A stretch of DNA of 64,000 nucleotides from Escherichia coli (GTDB lineage Bacteria; Pseudomonadota; Gammaproteobacteria; Enterobacterales; Enterobacteriaceae). Positions 13,671-39,895 of the stretch are shown in pieces; position 1 is the first letter of the stretch; each line of letters starts with the position of its first letter. The stretch lies in the NCBI RefSeq assembly GCF_024223415.1, contig NZ_CP100500.1. One strand, given 5' to 3'. A program made the position numbers and the translations under genes. A model generated the notes under the pieces. That model saw only the letters and a list, made by a program, of their open reading frames with translations, did not search any database and had not been told where the DNA came from.

Positions 13671-16600
13671 TTATTCAAACAGGGCTTCAATATCGTTAAT
13701 TAGCTCGCTGGCGGTGATGGCATCGATTACGGAGAACTGCGCTTCCTGTGTTGAATTACTCCCCCAGCCATATCTTTCTGCTTTGCCTTCCCATAGCCAC
13801 AGCTTGCTTAAGAGCTGCTCAGCGCTGAGTTCGGCTGGCGACATGCCTACCGCAAAGCCTTCATCGATTTCCATGATTAACGACCAGCGACCCAAAGGTT
13901 TGATCATCCATCCGATCCAGCCTCCATCCTGTGGTTCGCCCTTTATCCAGCCTTTATTCGCCAGCCCCATGACCCGACCACTCGGGCATTTTCTGCCTGC
14001 CCAGCGGGTCAGTTCACTGGCATTGCGCTCGGCTTCTGTCAGGGCGTAGCTGTTACGGTCGATCTGGCGGAACGGTGGTAGCAGTTCGTAGTCGGCAAAA
14101 AGCTGACCAAAGGCGGCAGCATCCGTTGGTGATATTTCCAGAACGTGAGGAGTGCCGATAGAGATATCGCCTTCCGGCAGGGTGAAAAGATCATCGTCAG
14201 CGGTGCTGGAGCTGTTATCTTCTGCTACGCGAAAGCAAGCCAGTAGCTGGTTTTCGGCGCTATAAACGCCCCAAATCAGACGGCGGGTTAAGTGACGAAC
14301 CAGCGGATGCTCAACCAGGAAGAGCTGGAAGTTTTCCAGCGACCAGCGGCGGCGCAGGCACATGGCGGATTCCAGCCTTGCTACCTGCTGGGCGGCGATG
14401 GTACGCGCATCTTTTTTCAGCAATTTGTAGCGGTTAACCGCATCGTTCGCCCGCGTTTCATCATCGCTTTTGTTCGGTTTGGGCAGGTCTTTCAGGCGGC
14501 TGCCGGAAACATCACGCACAAACGGTTTTAAGGTTTCATCAAAGCTGACGGTGAACTGCCGTGGGCCAAAATCCAGCAGCAGCGAACCGTTATCATCCAG
14601 ACCGAGATCCGGTGCTAACCGATCTTCAAGCTCCGCCACCGTGAGTTCGCGGCTCTCGGCAATGTCGGCAATTTTTTCTTTTGCCCGCTCCTGTAATGCT
14701 TTGAATTTCAGTTTCTGGGCGATGCCGTTAAGCTGCATAAGGGCGATATCACTACCGATAGCAGCGAGAATATCCAACCCAACGGTGGCGCGTTTATGCT
14801 GGGATTCACCAGGCCAGGCGCGTATTAATGGCGTCAGTTTGCGGGCGGTGTCATCGTTACCGAGAACGCCTAACGCAGTGAACGCCCAACTCTCTTTCGA
14901 CGGCGCGCCAGCGGTCTGCCAGGCGGTAAACAGATCCCAGGCAAATCCCGCCAGTGAGTCGGCGGAACAGACGTCTTTCACCTGCAATAATCCCGGATAC
15001 AGAGCCTCTTCCTGAGGGAAGCGGAGCATTTCACCGAGGTGGAGGAGGGCGCTATCTGGCAGTGATTGGGCATTTGCTTTTAATACCGGGCGCGTCCAGA
15101 GCGATGGCTGATAAAAGGCCGGAAGAGTGGGGATTTTTGTCGGGTGATTATCTAAGGGATCGAGCGCAAGCAGAGCGTTCACCGCATCGGTTACTTCCGG
15201 CTGGTTATAACGTCGGGCGATTTCTTGCAGTAATGGCTGATGACCGTTTTCGGTAAGCATACGCAAGGCAGCGCGGGCGTTATCCTGGGCTTCACCGGCT
15301 TTGCCGAGCGCCGCAGGCAGCAGGCCGGTAAGGGCATGTTCCGGGTATTTCAACAGCCAGCTACGGGCGTTTTCGCGTAGCGTTTTCAGTTTGTTGAAGG
15401 CACGGGCGACGGCAGGAGCCAGCTCACTCGCTGCGAAGTAATTCGTGATGGGCAAGGCTTCTTGTGGATAGCGTGCAAGTGAGTTTACTAACCCAGGTAA
15501 CCCTTTGAGTCCAAAATGTAACATGGAGTATTCGGTATCGGTATGTGGAGATAGGGTAAGGGCATTCCATGCTTTTACTGCTTTCTCCAGCGGCAATGTT
15601 GTCAAAATCCCCAACTGCCAATAATGCCCGGTAGGTGAATGAAACACCTTAAATTCACTTAGTAAGGTTGAATAATCTTCATTTAGCCATGCCTCAACTA
15701 CCGCTTCGGGAGCTTTAATATATGTACCAGCGATCCGTCGTTGAAAACCCATCCTTGCCAACAGGTTGGTAGTACTTTCTTCATGGCTAACCGTGATGTG
15801 TTTTGAATACCAGATATATTTCGCCAAAAGTTGATTACTGATTTCTTCTGTCAGATAACAGATTGGCTCAATGCCTAATGGCGCTAAATCCAGCACCGGA
15901 ATCGGCGATTTTTTCTTTTTCGAAAGCCAGGGAGGGGAGACTACTACGGCTGGCAGTAGATCGGCGCTGGCATGGTTTGAGGGCTGTGTCAGTTGTTGCT
16001 GGCATGATTTCAGTACGGCAACTGCGGGTGTCGAGAGCCAGGGAATGACCTGTTCTGCCAGTGCTGGTTGTGAGATAAGCATTGTCATTAGCATAATGCG
16101 CCAACTGTTCTCTTCTTTTTGCCCAAGAAGTTCCGTCAGTGCCGCCATTGCTGCATGTGGGAACGCAGCAATGGCTTTCGTCATCCGATCGTGACAGCGT
16201 TTAGTTTGCCCGGCTACACGTATAAGCAGTGTCAATGCGAACGGATGATTGATATGACGCAACACATCGGCGCAGTAGTCACTTGCGGCATAGGGAGCAA
16301 ATCGGGGCAGGGCTGCAACACCTTGCTCCTGTAATACGGTGGCTGACCATATCGCACCACAATAGTAATCATCAAAAATGGCATATGGTTCGTGATATTT
16401 TTCTAATGAGGCAAGAATGTGCTCATCAGTCGCCACTATTTTTAACCACTCAAGCGAGGGTAATTTTTTTTGCCCCAGTAGACGCTGGGCAATTTCATGT
16501 GCAATTTCTGGTTTTTCGGGTAATAACAAAGCAATTAATGGTTGCCGCCATTCTGGAATATGTGGAATTGCTGCAATAAGTTTTTGTGCACATTTTTGCC

Positions 16601-28143: not shown

Positions 28144-28416
28144 ATGTCTCATACAATCCGTGATAAACAGAAACTGAAAGCGCGTGCCAGTAAGATTCAG
28201 GGCCAGGTCGTGGCGCTCAAGAAAATGCTCGACGAGCCGCACGAATGCGCTGCAGTTTTACAACAGATTGCTGCTATCCGTGGCGCGGTAAACGGTCTGA
28301 TGCGGGAAGTGATTAAAGGTCATCTGACGGAACACATCGTTCACCAGGGGGATGAGCTAAAACGTGAAGAAGATCTGGATGTCGTTCTGAAGGTGCTGGA
28401 TTCATATATCAAATAA
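28144..28416 (+). CDS. rcnR: Ni/Co-responsive transcriptional repressor RcnR
   Basis: 90-aa CsoR/RcnR-family protein. Confidence 0.9.
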
Positions 28417-28504
28417 TTTATTAACGCGATTGTAAAACTGCCGTTTTTCCTCGTTTACAACGCGTGCGCTGGACATTACCATCCTCCTCTGCGATTTATC
28501 ATCG

Positions 28505-28557
28505 CAACCAAACGACTCGGGGTGCCCTTCTGCGTGAAGGCTGAGAAATACCCGTAT
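28505..28557 (+). ncRNA. 5' fragment of thiM TPP riboswitch aptamer, severed from thiMD by the island insertion
   Basis: Sequence aaccaaacgactcggggtgcccttctgcgtgaaggctgagaaatacccgtat matches the 5' half of the thiM thi-box leader, then diverges into island DNA. Confidence 0.75.
28544..28557. repeat. attL core: 14-bp direct repeat AGAAATACCCGTAT
   Basis: Identical 14-mer found again at 39954-39967 at the other island boundary; both lie within riboswitch sequence. Confidence 0.75.
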
Positions 28558-28643
28558 TTTCTCATTTAGTGTTTTTTGTGGTTCGGGGTTGTTCGTGGTT
28601 GTTTGTGTATGTGTTTGATATATATTGAATTATTGTGTTTTCT

Positions 28644-28718
28644 TGTTTGTTGTTGTTCGTCGTTGTTCGTAGAGCTTCAACAAAATGTGTGGTCAGTTGT
28701 GTGGTCAGTTTTTTGAGG
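28644..28718. repeat. Left copy of ~75-bp near-identical direct repeat just inside the island end
   Basis: ttgttcgtcgttgttcgtagagcttcaacaaaatgtgtggtcagttgtgtggtcagtttt shared with 39821-39895; contains internal TTGTTCGT and TGTGGTCAGTT sub-repeats. Confidence 0.85.
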
Positions 28719-28745
28719 CTGGAGGACTGAAAAGAGGATCTGATA

Positions 28746-29969
28746 GTGGGAAAAGCACTAAACAAACTGAGCGATTCGACGTTAAAAAAATTGGCGTCTG
28801 TCCAAGCAGAAAAAGAGCGTTTTTACTCCGACGGGGGCGGGCTGGAGATTAAACACTCAAAGGGCGGCAAATTAACCTGGTATTTCCGGTACCGAACGGG
28901 AGGCCGTGAGGTTGCCGCAGAGCGGTTAAAGCTGGGGGCTTACCCTGAATTGTCGCTGAAAGCTGCAAGGGAAAAACGCGCACAGTGCCGGGCATGGCTG
29001 GCTGAGGGTAAAAACCCCCGTTATGAGTTGTGCGCCACAGTACAGGAAGCGCTAAAACCCGTTACGGTGAAGGAGGCGATTAACTACTGGCTGGATGAAT
29101 ATGCGAAGGATAACCGCAAAGACTACATAAAGCTGGTGCAACGTATGGATAAGCACATCATTTGCCATATAGGGGCAATTCCCCTTGATAAGTGTGATAC
29201 AAGGCAGTGGATCGCATGTTTTGACCGTGTACGAAAAAAAGCACCAGTAGCAGCAGGGCACGTCATGCAAACCTGCAAACAGGCGCTAAAGTTCTGCCGC
29301 AGGAGACGCTACGCGTTCAGTAATGCCCTGGACGATTTGATCGTCAGCGATGTGGGTAAGAGAGCAGAAATTCGCGAGAGGGTGCACAGCAACAGCGAAT
29401 TAAAGGAAATTTTACGCGCTATTGATGGTGATGTGTTCGCGCCTTACTACAGCGCGTTAATGCGCTTGCTGATTGTGTTCGGGTGCAGAACGGCAGAGGT
29501 CAGACTTTCAGAGATCAAAGAATGGGATCTGAAAGAAATGTTGTGGACAGTGCCAAAAGAGCATAGCAAAACGAAGGTAACGATATTCAGGCCAATCCCC
29601 GATGGCATTTTGCCGTTCATTCAGAAGCTGGTGGAGCAGAACCGGCATACAGGGTTATTACTCGGAGAACTGAAAAAAGATACCACGGTAGCGCAATATG
29701 GGCGAAATGCGCATAAGCGGCTTAACCAGGAACACTGGACGCTGCATGACTTTCGCCACACGTTTACAACGATGCTGAACGATTTAGGTGTCGATCCGCA
29801 TATCGTGGAGCACATCACAGCGCATCAGATGCCCGGTCAGCAAAAAACCTATAACCATTCACGCTATTTACAGGCGAAGCGAGACGCTCTGAATCTGTGG
29901 GTTGAGCGCCTCGATGTGCTGGCTGGAAATCATGAAAATATTGTCATATTAAGGGCTGAAAATGAATAA
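28746..29969 (+). CDS. int: Tyrosine recombinase, P4-type integrase
   Basis: N-terminal arm-binding-like segment (SDGGGLEIKHSKGGKLTWYFRYR) and C-terminal catalytic region (HDFRHTFTT...); apparent GTG start. Confidence 0.9.
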   Translation: MGKALNKLSDSTLKKLASVQAEKERFYSDGGGLEIKHSKGGKLTWYFRYRTGGREVAAERLKLGAYPELSLKAAREKRAQCRAWLAEGKNPRYELCATVQEALKPVTVKEAINYWLDEYAKDNRKDYIKLVQRMDKHIICHIGAIPLDKCDTRQWIACFDRVRKKAPVAAGHVMQTCKQALKFCRRRRYAFSNALDDLIVSDVGKRAEIRERVHSNSELKEILRAIDGDVFAPYYSALMRLLIVFGCRTAEVRLSEIKEWDLKEMLWTVPKEHSKTKVTIFRPIPDGILPFIQKLVEQNRHTGLLLGELKKDTTVAQYGRNAHKRLNQEHWTLHDFRHTFTTMLNDLGVDPHIVEHITAHQMPGQQKTYNHSRYLQAKRDALNLWVERLDVLAGNHENIVILRAENE

Positions 29970-30747
29970 TCTGGGCCGTGTATATCATACGCTGCCAATG
30001 GCAGCTAAAAAAATGGGATGTACTGTAGAGGATATTCTACATTTTGGTGCAACTAACCGACTTGAAATATGTGCGTATATTGATGATATTGAACAGAGAA
30101 AAGATTATTGCACTTTTAATGTGTTTTTTGATAATGAAGATAGCGAGAATAGTTTTTCTAAAACTATAAATAAATATAATTCCATATTTACTGACATGTA
30201 TGAAATATCATTGTTTAATTATAATGATGAGTTTTGTGTTGATGATGAGCGTATGGTTATTGAAGGTTTGTATGCTAATCATATGAAAGGCTTTTTTGCA
30301 ATACCATCTGAATTTCTTGTCGAAGTTGAATTGTCAAGTGCCTGTGAAATCATAAATCTATCGCCTCGTTATTTATATACACCGAAAGGTTATGGTGATT
30401 ATATTCGGTTGGATAGTATAGAAGGTCTTTCTATTCCAGAAAACAGGCTCGTGATATTCGATAGTGAGATATCGGGTTTTAATTATCAAAAGAAACCTAA
30501 ATATGCCGGAGGTGAAAGAGAATCACCTAAAACCAGAGCTAAAAAAGCCGAGATAATACCTGCTCTCATAAAACTGATCCCTGAGATGCAAGATGTGGAT
30601 TTGGAGGATACACCCGTATCCAAAATTGCAGAAATGATAGAGGTTATTGCTGCACAAAGAGGGGTTGAGTTACCTAGCACTCACAGGCAGACATGGCAGA
30701 AATATTTAGGGCGTGATGCTGGTGACGTTCCAAAACGTCAAAAGTGA
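29962..30747 (+). CDS. Hypothetical cargo protein, AT-rich, translationally coupled to int
   Basis: 261-aa ORF overlapping int stop by 8 bp; noticeably lower GC than flanks; no motif recognised. Confidence 0.6.
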   Translation: MNNLGRVYHTLPMAAKKMGCTVEDILHFGATNRLEICAYIDDIEQRKDYCTFNVFFDNEDSENSFSKTINKYNSIFTDMYEISLFNYNDEFCVDDERMVIEGLYANHMKGFFAIPSEFLVEVELSSACEIINLSPRYLYTPKGYGDYIRLDSIEGLSIPENRLVIFDSEISGFNYQKKPKYAGGERESPKTRAKKAEIIPALIKLIPEMQDVDLEDTPVSKIAEMIEVIAAQRGVELPSTHRQTWQKYLGRDAGDVPKRQK

Positions 30748-30803
30748 TATCACGTACAGATAGTGTGATATCACACAAACGGCATTTTACCACCGCCTAG
30801 AAT

Positions 30804-30837
30804 CGTCCTCGTTCGGCAACGTTCGAGGACGTTTTTT
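30804..30837 (+). terminator. Hairpin plus T-run immediately upstream of alpA start
   Basis: cgtcctcg...cgaggacg followed by TTTTTT then ATG; the 3' arm contains the GAGGA Shine-Dalgarno-like sequence. Confidence 0.5.
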
Positions 30838-31062
30838 ATGAATCAAAATACACAATTTCAATCACTATCAGATCGCGTAATCCGTGAGGATGAATGCCGT
30901 AAGTTAACAGGAGTGTGCCGCACTACACGCTACGAACTGGAGAAAAAAGGGAGCTTTCCGTCTCGCCGTAATCTTGGTGGGCGTTCTGTAGGTTGGCTGC
31001 TGTCCGAGGTTATGGAATGGGTTAAAAGCCGGGATCGCATTAATTCAGGCAAGGCAGCGTAA
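30838..31062 (+). CDS. alpA: AlpA-family phage transcriptional regulator
   Basis: 74-aa small HTH protein with typical AlpA-like pattern (SDRVIREDECRKLTGVCRTTRYELEKKGSFP). Confidence 0.8.
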   Translation: MNQNTQFQSLSDRVIREDECRKLTGVCRTTRYELEKKGSFPSRRNLGGRSVGWLLSEVMEWVKSRDRINSGKAA

Positions 31063-31200
31063 AGGGGAGTATATGACACATAAAACAAAGGCGACCGGGG
31101 GCGGTCGCCAATGGGAAAACACTAAACATAAGCCCGGCCATCATAGCGATTTGCTGGCTGGTGGGCAATGTGTCCAGTGTGGTGGCTTGCTGGTGGATTG

Positions 31201-31428
31201 TCAGCCAGGCGGTCGGTTTTTGCCGGATTTAAGCCGCCGTGGGTATTTATCGACAAAATCTTCAAGGGCAAATTTTTCTGGTGGCACTAAGCGCGGCGCT
31301 GGTGGTGGTATTTTTGTTCTGGTTAGTTCTTCCTCAAGTCTGGCGCAGGCTTCTGACTGCCTTTGCCGGATGATTTCATCATCTTGCGTTTGCGTGTCTT
31401 GTATTGGTGATAGTGTGTTGTTGGTCAT
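31201..31428 (-). CDS. Hypothetical protein, second gene of leftward operon
   Basis: 75-aa ORF downstream of the RHH-like gene on the minus strand, followed by a hairpin at 31094-31112. Confidence 0.45.
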   Translation of the reverse strand: MTNNTLSPIQDTQTQDDEIIRQRQSEACARLEEELTRTKIPPPAPRLVPPEKFALEDFVDKYPRRLKSGKNRPPG

Positions 31429-31485
31429 GATACTGCCCTGTAAAGCAATGCGCCGTAGTACCTCACACCACGGCGCTGATAGTGA

Positions 31486-31683
31486 TTATTCTGATTCTTT
31501 GGCCTTGCGGCGCTGTTCATATTTTAATTTGCGTCCACAGGCATCTAAGACCCATGCGGAAAAATTAGCACTAGGATTAGTTAATTTTTCTTGTTCAACG
31601 CTGGCATCAATCCCATCTATAAGCTCATGTGGGAATCGAATATTTTTCTTTGCTGATTTGTTGTTTGTGTTACCACTAGACAT
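31486..31683 (-). CDS. Putative ribbon-helix-helix DNA-binding protein, candidate island repressor
   Basis: 65-aa ORF; N-terminal KKNIRFPHELIDGID resembles the beta-strand/helix of CopG/Arc-type RHH proteins; divergent from rightward operon. Confidence 0.45.
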   Translation of the reverse strand: MSSGNTNNKSAKKNIRFPHELIDGIDASVEQEKLTNPSANFSAWVLDACGRKLKYEQRRKAKESE

Positions 31684-31710
31684 TGATGCACCTCACTTAA
31701 ATGGACTTTA

Positions 31711-31790
31711 TGGGCGCACACAATACAGCAAAAAAAGTGAGAAGTTAAGTATTGACATGTGCGCACACATGATTCTAATCTGTGCGCACA
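31711..31790. promoter_or_regulatory. Divergent promoter/operator region with three copies of palindrome TGTGCGCACA
   Basis: tgggcgcaca (31711-31720), tgtgcgcaca (31758-31767), tgtgcgcaca (31781-31790); TTGACA at 31752-31757 immediately precedes the second site. Confidence 0.55.
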
Positions 31791-31882
31791 GTTTGGGTTG
31801 CATTGCTCAAATTAAGCAACGCCCCGCAGTGCTCGCAACACATGCAGGGCGTCTAACCAAACCGTTAATAGGAGTAACGATT

Positions 31883-32083
31883 ATGGCTGGAACACAGCAT
31901 ACCCCACGCCTTGCGCACACACAAACCGCCTTTGTGTGGCGTTTTCTGGCACTGAGTGCCGGAGAATCTCAAATTATCCACGTAACCGCCTGGACGGAAC
32001 GCGAAGCGCGTAACCGTTGCCCGTCCGGTTGTGTCGCTGTATTCGCCGCCCGTATCCGTCAGGGGGAAACCTATGCACAATAA
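31883..32083 (+). CDS. Small protein, possibly Icd-like (host cell division inhibitor family)
   Basis: 67-aa ORF with good RBS (aggag), first gene of rightward operon; family assignment from memory of similar small P4-like proteins, weak. Confidence 0.4.
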   Translation: MAGTQHTPRLAHTQTAFVWRFLALSAGESQIIHVTAWTEREARNRCPSGCVAVFAARIRQGETYAQ

Positions 32084-32303
32084 AACAACACCGGACGCAG
32101 CAGAAGAAGCAATGCAAATACTGATACGTGCGCTCGTTGATGTTACCCACATGGTGGAGATTATGGAGAGAAAATCACAGTCGGAGCACGACAAAAGAAA
32201 ACTTAAAACAATAAAAATAATTGCCAAAAACTCGCTGATAAAAGTTACAGACATCCTTAATGAGGACATTAAAAGAATCAGGGAGAAAGTGTGTGATGCA
32301 TAA
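32073..32303 (+). CDS. Hypothetical protein
   Basis: 76-aa ORF, start overlaps upstream stop, RBS ggggga. Confidence 0.45.
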   Translation: MHNKTTPDAAEEAMQILIRALVDVTHMVEIMERKSQSEHDKRKLKTIKIIAKNSLIKVTDILNEDIKRIREKVCDA

Positions 32304-32523
32304 AATACCTTTTGATGTTCTTATTCATTCTGAAAACGCATTAATCCGTGCAAAGGAAATGGACGCATTACTACTTAAGTTAATTGATGTGCCGGAAAGT
32401 GGCGATGAATCTGATTCAATAATGTTTTCTGCCGTGCGTACGCTATTAACGCATGTTATTAATGAATTAAATACAGTGATGGCAATTCACGAGAATAATA
32501 AAGCGCAGCACACCGGAGAATAA
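32296..32523 (+). CDS. Hypothetical protein
   Basis: 75-aa ORF, start overlaps upstream stop, RBS gggaga. Confidence 0.45.
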   Translation: MHKIPFDVLIHSENALIRAKEMDALLLKLIDVPESGDESDSIMFSAVRTLLTHVINELNTVMAIHENNKAQHTGE

Positions 32524-32528
32524 AAACC

Positions 32529-32828
32529 ATGAAAAATAAAAATTCTGGCGTTAATGCCAGCGGCCCCGCTCGGCCTGAATTTATGAACGGCGATATTTAC
32601 CGCGACCAGTACGGCGGCACGGTAACGATTAAAGGCGTGGAGGAACGGCGCATCACTTACCGCCGTGAAGGCTACGAATATGATTGCGTGATGCCTGTTT
32701 ATCAGTTCCGGCGTGATTTTTCTCTGGTACAGGCAGCGCCCCGCAGTAAACCAACCAGCAGGGAGAAAGCACGCGCCAATATTCAGGAAATAAAAAAGAT
32801 GCTTAACGTATTCAGGGGTAAAAAATGA
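32529..32828 (+). CDS. Hypothetical protein
   Basis: 99-aa ORF, ATGA-coupled to the primase gene. Confidence 0.45.
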   Translation: MKNKNSGVNASGPARPEFMNGDIYRDQYGGTVTIKGVEERRITYRREGYEYDCVMPVYQFRRDFSLVQAAPRSKPTSREKARANIQEIKKMLNVFRGKK

Positions 32829-34573
32829 AACTGGCACCGAACGTAAAAAAACAGCCGCGTGGAATAAAACACAAAGACACAGAGGTGATTATCTTTGCGG
32901 GTAGTGATGCCTGGGCGCACGCGAAACAGTGGCAGGAACAGGACGGCCCCGCATCCGGCGATGATGTGCCGCCTGTGTGGCTCGGGCCAAATCAGCTTGC
33001 TGAACTGGATGCACTGAAAATTGTACCGGAGGGAAAAAAACGCGTAAGGCTGTACAGGGCCGGAGAACTGGATTTGGTGGAGACCAAAAAGATTGGTCAG
33101 AAGCTGGCGGCGGCAGATATTCAGGATGCGAATTTTTACTCTGAAGGAATGCACGGCCAGAAGGTGCAGAACTGGCGGCGCTATCTGAGTGCTGAGCGTG
33201 AAAATATTGCCGCAGGGCTTACCATGCCGGAACAGAAAAAAGCACAACTTTCACAGATGGCAGACAGTGAACGGGCACAGCTTCTTTCTTCCCGCTTTGA
33301 TGGTGTCTGCGTCCATGCAGAAAGTGAAATCGTTCACGTATGGCGCGGCGGGGTATGGTGTCCGGTCAGCACAATGGAACTTAGCCGCGAAATGGTGGCG
33401 ATCTATTCAGAGCACAGGGCCACTTTCAGCAAGCGCGTAATCAATAACGCCGTGGAAGCGTTAAAAGTTATTGCCGAACCAATGGGCGAGCCGTCCGGCG
33501 ATTTGCTGCCGTTCGCCAATGGTGCGCTTGACCTGAAAACGGGGGAATTTTCCCCGCACACGCCGGAGAACTGGATCACCACGCACAACGGCATTGAGTA
33601 CACGCCACCAGCACCAGGGGAGAATATCTGCGACAACGCGCCAAACTTTCATAAATGGCTTGAGCACGCAGCCGGAAAAGACCCGCGCAAGATGATGCGT
33701 ATATGTGCCGCGCTGTACATGATTATGGCGAACCGGTACGACTGGCAGATGTTTATTGAGGCCACCGGAGACGGCGGGAGCGGCAAAAGTACATTCACAC
33801 ACATAGCCAGCCTTCTGGCAGGGAAACAGAACACGGTAAGCGCTGAGATGACATCGCTTGATGATGCTGGTGGGCGTGCGCAGGTTGTCGGGAGTCGGCT
33901 TATTGTCCTGGCAGACCAGCCGAAATATACAGGCGAAGGAACGGGCATCAAGAAAATCACGGGCGGAGACCCCGTGGAAATAAACCCGAAATATGAGAAG
34001 CGTTTTACGGCGGTAATCAGGGCGGTGGTGCTGGCTACCAACAATAACCCGATGATATTCACCGAACGGGCCGGAGGTGTGTCACGTCGTCGCGTAATTT
34101 TCCGTTTCGACAATATCGTCAGTGAGGCTGAAAAAGACAGGGAGCTACCGGAAAAGATTGCGGCTGAAATCCCTGTCATTATCCGCCGCTTGCTGGCGAA
34201 CTTTGCCGACCCTGAAAAGGCACGGGCTTTACTCATTGAACAGCGAGACGGTGATGAAGCTCTGGCAATAAAGCAACAGACGGATCCGGTTATTGAGTTT
34301 TGCCAGTTTCTGAATTTTCTGGAGGAAGCGCGCGGCCTGATGATGGGCGGCGGCGGTGACTCTTCCAGGTACACGACCAGAAACAGCCTTTACCGCGTCT
34401 ATCTGGCGTTTATGGCGTATGCAGGCAGGAGCAAACCGCTAAACGTAAATGACTTTGGCAAGGCTATGAAGCCAGCGGCGAAAGTTTACGGACATGAATA
34501 TATAACGCGCAGGATTAAAGGGTTTACGCAAACCAACGTGACAACAACAGACGACTGCGACGCGTTTTTATAA
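32825..34573 (+). CDS. Phage/plasmid primase, P4 family (NTPase/helicase domain)
   Basis: 582-aa ORF with Walker A GDGGSGKST and D5/P4-alpha-like C-terminal NTPase architecture. Confidence 0.8.
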   Translation: MKLAPNVKKQPRGIKHKDTEVIIFAGSDAWAHAKQWQEQDGPASGDDVPPVWLGPNQLAELDALKIVPEGKKRVRLYRAGELDLVETKKIGQKLAAADIQDANFYSEGMHGQKVQNWRRYLSAERENIAAGLTMPEQKKAQLSQMADSERAQLLSSRFDGVCVHAESEIVHVWRGGVWCPVSTMELSREMVAIYSEHRATFSKRVINNAVEALKVIAEPMGEPSGDLLPFANGALDLKTGEFSPHTPENWITTHNGIEYTPPAPGENICDNAPNFHKWLEHAAGKDPRKMMRICAALYMIMANRYDWQMFIEATGDGGSGKSTFTHIASLLAGKQNTVSAEMTSLDDAGGRAQVVGSRLIVLADQPKYTGEGTGIKKITGGDPVEINPKYEKRFTAVIRAVVLATNNNPMIFTERAGGVSRRRVIFRFDNIVSEAEKDRELPEKIAAEIPVIIRRLLANFADPEKARALLIEQRDGDEALAIKQQTDPVIEFCQFLNFLEEARGLMMGGGGDSSRYTTRNSLYRVYLAFMAYAGRSKPLNVNDFGKAMKPAAKVYGHEYITRRIKGFTQTNVTTTDDCDAFL

Positions 34574-39242: not shown

Positions 39243-39374
39243 TACGTACGGACATCGAGATAACGCAAAATTGCGCTGGCTACATCCCTCACATCTGAGG
39301 ACTGATAACAAGCTGCCTGAAAGACAGTCACAAACTACGAAATTTTCGCAGTTTAATTAATGGTCAGCTTAATC

Positions 39375-39665
39375 GCTAACCCGCTGATATTTTCGGAAAC
39401 ATCAATTTGAGGAAGTCGGCGCGGTAACTCGCTGAACTTAAAGCAAAGCGCAAAATTGCGCTGATTACTGGTTGGAATTGTTCCAGAGTGCAAATTTGCA
39501 CTCTGGCCTAACCCGTTGATTATTTCGAAAACCTGCAATGCAGGAAATCGGGGAAGTAAGCCTAAGCTATTGATTGTTTCGAAAACCACCATTGGGGGAT
39601 GTCGGGAAAGTAAGACTAACCCATTGATTCTTCCACAATCCTCAATGTGAGGAGGCCGGACATCG
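39375..39665. repeat. Four ~54-bp imperfect repeats (three in tandem), each with a variable central CAAT-containing near-palindrome
   Basis: Units at ~39375, 39506, 39560, 39614 share CTAACCC.TTGATT.TTTCGAAAAC and TCGGG.AAGTAAG flanks around a variable centre (e.g. cctgcaatgcagg, cctcaatgtgagg). Confidence 0.7.
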
Positions 39666-39820: not shown

Positions 39821-39895
39821 TTGTTTGTTATTGTTCGTCGTTGTTCGTAGAGCTTCAACAAAATGTGTGGTCAGTTGTGTGGTCAGTTTTGAGGT
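39821..39895. repeat. Right copy of ~75-bp near-identical direct repeat just inside the island end
   Basis: Same ~60-bp core as 28644-28718. Confidence 0.85.

Follow-up and report, generated by a model that had tools for sequence, protein, structure and literature searches.

Within a 64-kb stretch of Escherichia coli DNA (contig NZ_CP100500.1; referred to here as the window, whose positions supply all coordinates below), an 11.2-kb island lies beside rcnR, with rcnA, rcnR and yeh genes in its flanks. The island begins with int, orfX and alpA, which follow one another in the same direction, and this analysis concerns the junction between the latter two genes, where a pair of palindromes and a hairpin precede the alpA start codon. 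Elsewhere, the island encodes a divergently oriented YlcI/YnfO protein, a P4-type primase, an SSB, a major head protein, a decoration protein, and a TerS-like protein. On the strength of its gene content and order (int, alpA and the primase gene co-oriented; capsid and packaging genes; attachment (att) repeats at the ends), the island is a phage-inducible chromosomal island (PICI) of the capsid-forming type. Close relatives in complete E. coli genomes, one of them at cspD in O157:H7, are annotated with capsid genes; compared with the 15.4-kb capsid-forming prototype, the island in the window is shorter.

AlpA is the master activator of Gram-negative PICIs and is produced from a self-activating promoter, autoactivation having been seen in EcCICFT073 and EcCIMP1 (PMC6092414; PMC11773190). 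The alpA gene is induced by helper phages, through a phage factor not identified in these papers (PMC6092414; PMC11773190), and no repressor is known for Gram-negative PICIs (PMC6092414). EcCIEDL933, the prototype capsid-forming PICI, requires alpA for helper induction (bioRxiv 10.1101/2022.09.08.507074). [quoted passage not shown] Thirteen iolg families were reported, for which the authors proposed a role in the excision complex (PMC10803314). In all of these Gram-negative satellites (PICIs, capsid-forming PICIs and PICMIs), everything downstream hinges on switching alpA on.

The palindrome upstream of alpA, GTGATATCAC, is a perfect 10-bp dyad that a pattern search found in two exact copies and nowhere else in the window, against a chance expectation of about 0.06 exact copies; the sole other match at no more than one mismatch lies at position 14743. 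A sequence-only reading that preceded this analysis had reported paired palindromes here. The pair is real, although its positions had been placed 1-2 nt off and the gap between the 10-mers is 11 bp rather than 14, which puts the centres 21 bp, or two helical turns, apart. The same reading had described a strong hairpin with a T-run ending at the alpA ATG, the 3' arm of which contains the GAGGA Shine-Dalgarno (SD) sequence. Both statements held on direct reading of the sequence, and the fold agrees with the first: RNA from 30740 to 30860 folds at -35.7 kcal/mol (z = -5.5), which 0 of 200 shuffles equalled, and the local hairpin has an energy of -19 kcal/mol. The anatomy of an intrinsic terminator, namely a GC-rich 8-bp stem with U6 immediately 3', is present, even though a simple terminator scan of the window does not list the hairpin because of its internal loop. 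No Rfam 15 covariance model matched at E ≤ 1 across 28400-33000. A further feature, absent from the earlier reading, is a -10-like hexamer at a fixed distance of 28-29 nt from the proximal palindrome (Table 1).

Table 1. Coordinates of the island ends, the first three genes and the elements of the orfX-alpA junction.
Feature	Position	Strand	Remarks
Left att copy, 70-nt direct repeat	28643-28712	n/a	99% identical to right copy; spacing 11,178 nt
int, tyrosine integrase, 407 aa	28746-29969	+	Relatives annotated as integrase
orfX, 261 aa	29962-30747	+	Overlaps int end by 8 nt; uncharacterised family
Distal palindrome GTGATATCAC	30744-30753	n/a	Centre about -62 from predicted start; overlaps orfX stop TGA (30745-47)
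Proximal palindrome GTGATATCAC	30765-30774	n/a	Centre about -41 from predicted start
Spacer	30775-30797	+	Sequence unconserved, length conserved; no -35 hexamer
-10-like hexamer TAGAAT	30798-30803	+	Abuts hairpin; predicted PalpA (promoter inferred)
Hairpin	30804-30831	+	8-bp stem, TT/TT internal loop, 2 bp, GCAA loop
Hairpin 5' arm CGTCCTCG	30804-30811	+	
Hairpin interior	30814-15 and 30820-21 (inner pairs)		2x2 internal loop TT/TT, then inner CG/CG pairs
Hairpin GCAA loop	30816-19	+	
Hairpin 3' arm CGAGGACG	30824-30831	+	
alpA Shine-Dalgarno GAGGA	30825-30829	+	Within 3' arm, 8 nt ahead of ATG
T6 run (terminator tail)	30832-30837	+	Directly ahead of ATG; only some lineages have one
alpA, 74 aa, Phage_AlpA-type regulator/excisionase	30838-31062	+	phrog_2790 at 1e-17; PF05930 on homologues
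Right att copy, 70-nt direct repeat	39821-39890	n/a	

The gene upstream of the junction had been taken for cargo, which is wrong: orfX overlaps the integrase gene, belongs to a conserved family, and carries a C-terminal variant that changes with the operator sequence, as described below. The family is large and uncharacterised, extends through the Enterobacterales and beyond, and gave no Pfam, NCBIfam, PHROG or PADLOC match with the 261-aa window protein as the query. Three domains can be distinguished in OrfX: an N-terminal Xis/MerR-like winged helix, a hypervariable middle (26% mean identity), and a conserved C-terminal three-helix domain that spans residues 186-261 or so and ends in QTWQKYLGR. 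Comparison with strain UMNF18 (L002) places the variation within the gene. There, int is 98.6% identical, positions 29948-30621 (most of orfX) are unalignable as DNA, and identity returns to 89% from 30622 on; the two OrfX proteins are about 32-35% identical, with the divergence centred on the beta-rich middle domain. By these alignments, orfX is a mosaic hotspot. The isolated C-terminal domain was modelled by AlphaFold2 (AF2) with a pLDDT of 84.5, and the model has no informative structural neighbour and no recognised DNA-binding fold. The DUF6387 gene that fills the same slot in other islands was considered as an OrfX relative and rejected, no similarity being found. In a distant island from Enterobacter vonholyi (L141, 2240-3570), what looks like an OrfX-like gene broken in two encodes 71 aa of N-terminal sequence and a separate 225-aa part; downstream lie GTGATATCAC-N10-GTGATATCAC and a hairpin, CCCTCAC/GTGAGGG, that contains the SD of a different AlpA-family gene and has no U-run.

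To follow the junction across lineages, viral contigs were scanned for the paired palindrome, for AlpA relatives and for OrfX relatives, and contigs of OrfX homologues from Yersinia, Serratia, Klebsiella, Pluralibacter and others were added; 21 junctions were aligned (alignment A3). At 13 viral-contig and 8 genome loci with an OrfX homologue, the same order recurs, namely orfX, GTGAWWTCAC-N11(10)-GTGAWWTCAC, hairpin, and alpA. The palindrome pair follows the orfX stop within 0-15 nt, the spacing is N11 (N10 in one locus), and nearly every lineage has about 100 nt between palindrome 1 and the ATG. Divergence of OrfX to 31-34% identity with the window protein leaves this order intact; at L015, for example, AlpA is 99% identical to that of the window and OrfX 32%, and the junction is kept. 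The palindromes are the sole invariant blocks in the alignment.

The junction occurs in 65 of 5,426 complete E. coli genomes, the O157:H7 capsid-forming island among them, and also across the Enterobacterales. Palindromes are absent from PICIs with DUF6387 in the slot (L003, L068-L075) and from islands at the cspD site with no gene in the slot (L004-L006), while the hairpin is kept without palindromes in the DUF6387 islands and in L076. No further GTGAWWTCAC was found in the island or in PICIs lacking orfX. Among enterobacterial sequences in a collection of 2.9 million viral contigs, the N11 pair sits in PICI-like contigs of 8-20 kb, apart from a tandem repeat within coding sequence and a Trabulsiella locus that is unexplained; the full-size enterobacterial phage genomes of this collection did not show it. 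As judged from these comparisons of sequence, the junction is genuine and strongly conserved, a composite cis-regulatory module placed where control of the satellite is decided.

What is conserved in the hairpin is its structure. In the SD stem, six of the eight pairs have changed on both sides among the 21 sequences (for example, from T-A to C-G), and 87.5% of cells are paired, though three sequences are aligned out of register. When the 3' partners were slid by 1-3 columns, 24.8-47.6% of cells in the whole tested structure were paired, and the covariation score was reached by 0 of 500 shuffles. Hairpin energies range from -10.6 to -19 kcal/mol over 20 folded lineages, in all of which the SD has an unpaired probability of 0.00 in read-through RNA. 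In RNA that starts at the end of the 5' arm, the corresponding probability is 0.76 for the window and 0.13-0.92 across lineages. The U-run is absent while the stem is kept in L144, L147, L149, L150, L154, L155, L159, L161, L163, L164 and L141. Because the U-run is thus missing in about half of the lineages, SD sequestration is the conserved property, and termination is an addition in some lineages. Of the two roles suggested by the sequence-only reading, the gate on alpA translation is well founded in silico, given a stem that covaries and always contains the SD, with its function predicted; the terminator has the proper anatomy in the window but does not represent the conserved function.

In the palindromes, by contrast, sequence is what is kept. 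Natural variants retain the GTGA/TCAC half-sites, and the central two bases vary (TA, AT, AA, TT). A reading in which the palindromes act as RNA, with copy 1 pairing with copy 2 to form a 10-bp hairpin that stabilises the 3' end of the orfX message or marks it for processing, has in its favour that the fold is predicted and that the combination GTGAAATCAC...GTGATTTCAC, seen in L144/L163/L164 and independently in L170, loses self-symmetry while preserving the overall dyad and copy-to-copy complementarity. However, 5 of the 10 pairs in this hypothetical helix never vary and a single pair covaries, as against six of eight in the neighbouring SD hairpin over the same sequences. Variants listed as breaking the pairing nevertheless keep the GTGA/TCAC half-sites: L149 disrupts it at three positions, L155 carries the palindrome copies in direct orientation, and L150 shows a self-symmetric double change, GCGATATCGC. 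Moreover, no U-run follows the palindromes, and a second type of operator, introduced below, lies inside coding sequence. A role as RNA is thus highly improbable. A site read by a sequence-specific protein, each palindrome taking one dimer and both dimers lying on one face of the DNA, accounts for the pattern better than an RNA helix does. In this respect, the palindromes behave as a protein-binding site, in keeping with the sequence-only reading, being invariant in sequence without covariation. Candidate host factors were compared with the motif and set aside: the half-sites are 2 bp apart, as against TGTGA-N6-TCACA for CRP, and for FNR, Fur and DnaA the spacing or sequence does not fit.

Between the palindromes and the stem, the alignment points to a candidate promoter. 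The hexamer abutting the stem ends 28 nt after palindrome 2 in GTGA lineages (29 in the window lineage), a spacing found in 16 of 16, and the 22 nt between palindrome 2 and the hexamer are unconserved. The hexamers read TAGAAT, CAGAAT (three lineages), CAAAAT (four), CAATAT (two), CACTAT, TTAAAT (three), TTTAAT and TAAGGT; the last T is present in 16/16, A at position 5 in 15/16, and A at position 2 in 12/16. TAGAAT agrees with the -10 consensus at 5 of 6 positions. No -35 hexamer accompanies it, as no TTG lies 16-18 bp upstream, an absence ascribed to palindrome 2 occupying that region. Taking T30803 as -7 predicts a start at 30810-30811, where the 5' arm ends, and puts the palindrome centres at -40.5/-41.5 (palindrome 2) and -61.5/-62.5 (palindrome 1). 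A promoter at this spot is plausible in general, since the orfX-less PICI L003 has TTGCAC-16-TAAGAT at the equivalent place. The fixed distance of the hexamer from the palindrome would imply an alpA promoter that fires from inside the hairpin, which would explain how the translational gate is bypassed.

Variation at distant loci bears on which protein reads the palindromes. OrfX proteins with a C-terminus of the form ...QT[W/I/V]xKY[L/F]G keep a GTGA-type pair even at E values of about 1e-18 to 1e-26, the distant pairs including an exact N11 arrangement in L166 and an N12 arrangement in L170. OrfX proteins with a different C-terminal domain (P0047, P0055 and P0066) are instead accompanied by GGAAATTTCC-N11-GGAAATTTCC, although their N-terminal winged helix is about 60% identical to those at GTGA loci. 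L168 and L175 have an exact GGAAATTTCC pair, L165 and L169 a degenerate one; the pair is embedded in the last codons of the open reading frame (ORF), 28 nt ahead of a TTAAAT or TAnnnT hexamer, which is followed by the SD hairpin and alpA. From these comparisons, the OrfX C-terminal domain is the one locally encoded feature with which the operator type changes, and the architecture is constant. Neither the alleles of AlpA and YlcI nor the N-terminal domain of OrfX go together with operator type. Such a joint change of operator and C-terminal domain is what co-evolving regulator-operator pairs look like. The proposal that OrfX binds the palindromes, with the C-terminal domain as the best candidate for contact, is accordingly put at slightly less than an even chance.

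The same loci speak to AlpA itself as the binder, in which case the palindromes would be the site of its autoactivation. AlpA is known to activate its own expression in EcCICFT073 and EcCIMP1 (PMC6092414; PMC11773190), and positions near -41 and -62 would suit an activator. Yet PICIs with a 92%-identical AlpA and no orfX are without palindromes, and no copies lie at other promoters of the island. In addition, the AlpA subfamilies at GTGA loci are only about 30% identical to each other, whereas a GGAA (GGAAATTTCC) locus has an AlpA that shares 73% identity with one from a GTGA locus. AlpA was therefore rejected as the binder, and it would be surprising if it were the protein that reads this operator.

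A direct repeat in the SD hairpin interior was noted separately. At window positions 30811-30824 on the minus strand, a sequence-conserved CGAAC-N5/6-CGAAC (or TAAAC) arrangement is found, and the same type of repeat occurs in the hairpin interiors of L145-L162 and L076; in the window and the DUF6387 lineages its strand is reversed (CGTTCG...CGTTCG), as though the loop had flipped over while the arms stayed in place. A second protein might bind at this repeat, AlpA in autoregulation being one example. GAAC-N6-GAAC was found both in the hairpin interior and at both island ends, and a common AlpA site at the hairpin and att was considered on that basis; it was rejected as independent evidence because the end copies lie within the 70-nt att duplication, in a GT-rich host region.

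Alternatively, the operator could be read by a factor encoded elsewhere, either a helper-phage regulator or a host protein, with OrfX employed otherwise, for instance in the excision complex or in defence, and the match between operator and C-terminus reflecting linkage alone. Helper phages do induce alpA through a phage factor that was not identified (PMC6092414; PMC11773190), an excision role for iolg was proposed by the PICMI authors (PMC10803314), and the OrfX C-terminal domain has no recognised DNA-binding fold. Arrays of GTGATATCAC also occur as operator-like repeats beside ribbon-helix-helix and parA genes in unrelated phages and bacteria. Against an outside factor, enterobacterial N11 pairs are confined to PICI-like contigs, bar the two exceptions given above, and were not seen in the full-size enterobacterial phage genomes of the collection; the operator is invariant from Escherichia to Yersinia, Serratia and Pantoea despite different AlpA proteins, integrases and att sites; and its sequence switches exactly where the OrfX C-terminal domain switches. 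Such a factor is considered rather unlikely, if less so than the alternatives involving RNA or AlpA.

The occurrence of these motifs elsewhere was recorded in its own right. Repeats of GTGATATCAC or TGATATCA in 2-6 copies are found in unrelated gut phages, high-GC phages, Oscillospiraceae, Myxococcales and archaeal contigs, typically directly upstream of small Arc-like ribbon-helix-helix genes (motif I/L-R-F/L-P) or parA genes; the loci are L008 (8690-8790), L040, L048, L063, L109, L139, L113, L115 and L137, and in L109 the repeats flank the -10 of a consensus promoter. The same palindrome thus seems to be a recurrent protein target far outside PICIs. At the Trabulsiella guamensis locus (L041 2165-2195; L142 1881-1911), an exact GTGATATCAC-N11-GTGATATCAC has no obvious adjoining orfX or alpA. 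The pair GGAAATTTCC-N11-GGAAATTTCC also turns up in P2-like tail operons (L172-L174, L177, L180, L182), in the gap separating a tail tube gene from the small gene that follows it, a setting that has nothing to do with alpA; GGAAATTTCC pairs in other viral contigs are mostly this intergenic site and were set aside as uninformative about the binder. Arrays of TGATATCAC beside Arc-like ribbon-helix-helix genes in unrelated phages had suggested YlcI/YnfO as a binder. This candidate was rejected, as an identical YlcI allele occurs with palindromes (L061) and without them (L003). The YlcI beta-strand residues also differ among palindrome-bearing islands, and the ylcI promoter of the island carries a different palindrome set, TGTGCGCACA.

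With these results in hand, the junction is proposed to be a two-part switch in which alpA stays silent unless a specific DNA-binding protein turns on its own promoter, a reading given a probability of roughly 55%. The sequences themselves show the anatomy of the junction, its conservation and fixed geometry, the covariation of the hairpin, the invariance of the operator and the patterns of co-occurrence, including the operator swap that goes with the C-terminal swap; that a promoter lies here, where it starts, which way regulation runs and which protein binds are inferred. Transcription of int and orfX would be constitutive, by analogy with PICMI115. RNA reading in from int-orfX would fold the whole hairpin, thereby burying the SD, and in this element would also be terminated at U6. 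The palindromes would form the operator for a sequence-specific dimer, one per palindrome, both facing the same side of the helix at about 41 and 62 bp upstream of the predicted start; a -10 without a -35 and with sites at -41/-62 has the geometry expected of an activator-dependent promoter. The bound protein would activate this weak promoter, whose -10 abuts the hairpin, and the resulting transcripts, beginning at the last bases of the 5' arm, would be free of the hairpin and translated. AlpA would then reinforce its own expression and induce the island. The likeliest binder would be OrfX, acting through its conserved C-terminal domain, and its hypervariable middle could couple binding to a helper-phage signal. 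The positive direction of regulation is proposed because of the site positions and because deletion of iolg abolished phage-induced excision in PICMI115.

The main rival reverses that direction. In this repressor or insulator reading, the palindromes would be the operator for a repressor (a Stl-like OrfX or another protein) that blocks alpA, or acts as a roadblock, until a helper protein removes it, and the hairpin would simply be the int-orfX terminator. The invariance of the operator agrees with such a role, although equally with the two-part switch, and the U6 tail in the window fits a terminator. The hypervariable middle of OrfX, at 26% mean identity, recalls the diversification of Stl-type sensors, and the role is vacant, no repressor being known for Gram-negative PICIs (PMC6092414). 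However, sites at about -41 and -62, with none over the -10 or the start, are poorly positioned for repression, and the U-run is absent in about half of the lineages whereas the SD-containing stem is universal. Furthermore, deletion of the integrase-overlapping gene in PICMI115, if that gene is functionally equivalent, abolished phage-induced excision rather than making excision constitutive (PMC10803314). Repression is judged quite improbable.

Several observations count against the two-part switch with OrfX as its binder. The operator adjoins the C-terminal codons of orfX, so the link between the two could be hitch-hiking. A scan for consensus promoters lists nothing at the junction; TTAAAT, TTTAAT and TAAGGT are counted as lacking the key A at position 2; and in lineages with a U-run, the A/T-rich hexamer can partly be read as an extension of the stem that pairs with that run. 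At the very distant loci L166 and L170, the palindromes are present with no clear SD hairpin and with a longer distance to the ATG. For helix-turn-helix dimers, a palindrome of 10 bp whose half-sites stand 6 bp apart is an unusual target, and the PICMI115 iolg may be non-homologous to OrfX.

If the two-part switch is extended to its input, OrfX, together with at least some iolg genes of Gram-negative satellites, would be the missing helper-phage sensor. Expressed constitutively with Int, it would sit on the palindromes by its C-terminal domain, read a cue with its middle, and activate alpA from -41/-62 to yield hairpin-free mRNA, with at least two matched specificities: GTGAWWTCAC with ...QTWxKYLGR, and GGAAATTTCC with ...EISKK. 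This extension is offered tentatively and is considered a good deal less likely than the binding of OrfX to the palindromes as such.

Other features of the island were noted alongside the junction. The 70-nt repeats at its ends are unusually long for an att core and do not correspond to a tRNA gene (there is no tRNA in the window); they are internally repetitive, with two copies of GTTGTTCG and two of TGTGTGGTCAGT. Within 31711-31790, in the divergent region that separates ylcI (minus strand, 31486-31683) from the icd-like/primase operon running rightward, the palindrome TGTGCGCACA recurs, with exact copies at 31758 and 31781 and a one-mismatch copy at 31711, and brackets a good promoter composed of a TTGACA -35 and a TTCTAAT -10. 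By sequence, this set looks like classical repressor operators. At the same place, other PICIs have different inverted repeats, such as GTGTATTTCAC/GTGAAATACAC in L091 and GTGAATACC/GGTATTCAC in L098, which suggests immunity-like modules varying between islands. Just inside the right end, a 54-nt repeat occurs three times at 39374-39613 (70-100% identical, two copies in tandem) and could serve in packaging or, as iterons, in replication. Just past the end of alpA, the minus strand carries two strong terminator-like hairpins, at 31090-31109 and 31450-31476; the former, GGCGACCGCCCCCGGTCGCC, could be bidirectional and end the alpA transcript. A 336-aa ORF at 31073-32083 that overlaps minus-strand genes is probably spurious.

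Searchable literature yielded no description of the junction, the palindromes or the function of OrfX, a motif search returning only unrelated primer sequences. The junction supplies a defined 100-nt cis element and a candidate protein family, so that helper induction of alpA becomes directly testable. The gate would also explain how an activator gene that is toxic on over-expression can sit directly 3' of a constitutive integrase operon, as the ribosome-binding site (RBS) in read-through RNA would be locked. Should the start inside the hairpin prove true, this would be a clear case, outside insertion sequences, of translational gating that depends on where a transcript originates, and would provide a compact insulator for synthetic circuits and engineered PICI 'drones'.

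The closest precedent for the gate is fold-back inhibition in IS10 and IS50, reportedly described by Davis, Simons and Kleckner in 1985 and, for IS50, by the Reznikoff laboratory, which is said to shield transposase from read-through. In both settings, the RBS of a mobile element's key gene lies in a hairpin. In the IS elements and, by prediction, at this junction, the 5' arm is upstream of the native start, so that only external transcripts would fold and those from the native promoter could be translated. Here, however, read-through comes from the element's own int-orfX operon, not from host DNA; moreover, the hairpin doubles as an intrinsic terminator in some lineages, and the protected gene encodes an activator/excisionase, not a transposase. 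The predicted promoter would resemble class II and class I activator-dependent sigma-70 promoters, exemplified by CRP at -41.5 and -61.5 and by lambda cI at PRM, in having a recognisable -10, no -35, and dyad sites at about -41 and -62 on the same helix face. It differs in its compact 10-bp palindromes (GTGA-N2-TCAC), as opposed to sites of 16-22 bp, and in that its activator is only a candidate.

Among satellites, the P4 promoters Psid and PLL are activated by P2 Ogr/Cox, and there too a satellite promoter with an upstream dyad is switched on by an active helper, as is proposed here. The junction lacks a TGT-N12-ACA dyad, though, PICIs are a different satellite family, and the best candidate binder is encoded by the satellite. 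In Gram-positive PICIs, SaPI Stl is a divergently transcribed master repressor. Like Stl, OrfX would be a satellite regulator next to int that combines a conserved DNA-binding part with a diversified one and is coupled to a helper cue; unlike Stl, which represses, the position of the sites and the PICMI genetics point to a positive role. OrfX shares with iolg both its place between int and alpA and the overlap with the int end, whereas no cis element has been described for PICMI and the role proposed there is in the excision complex, not in alpA transcription (PMC10803314). The junction combines known kinds of control, with termination in a secondary part and a likely internal promoter as the remaining element.

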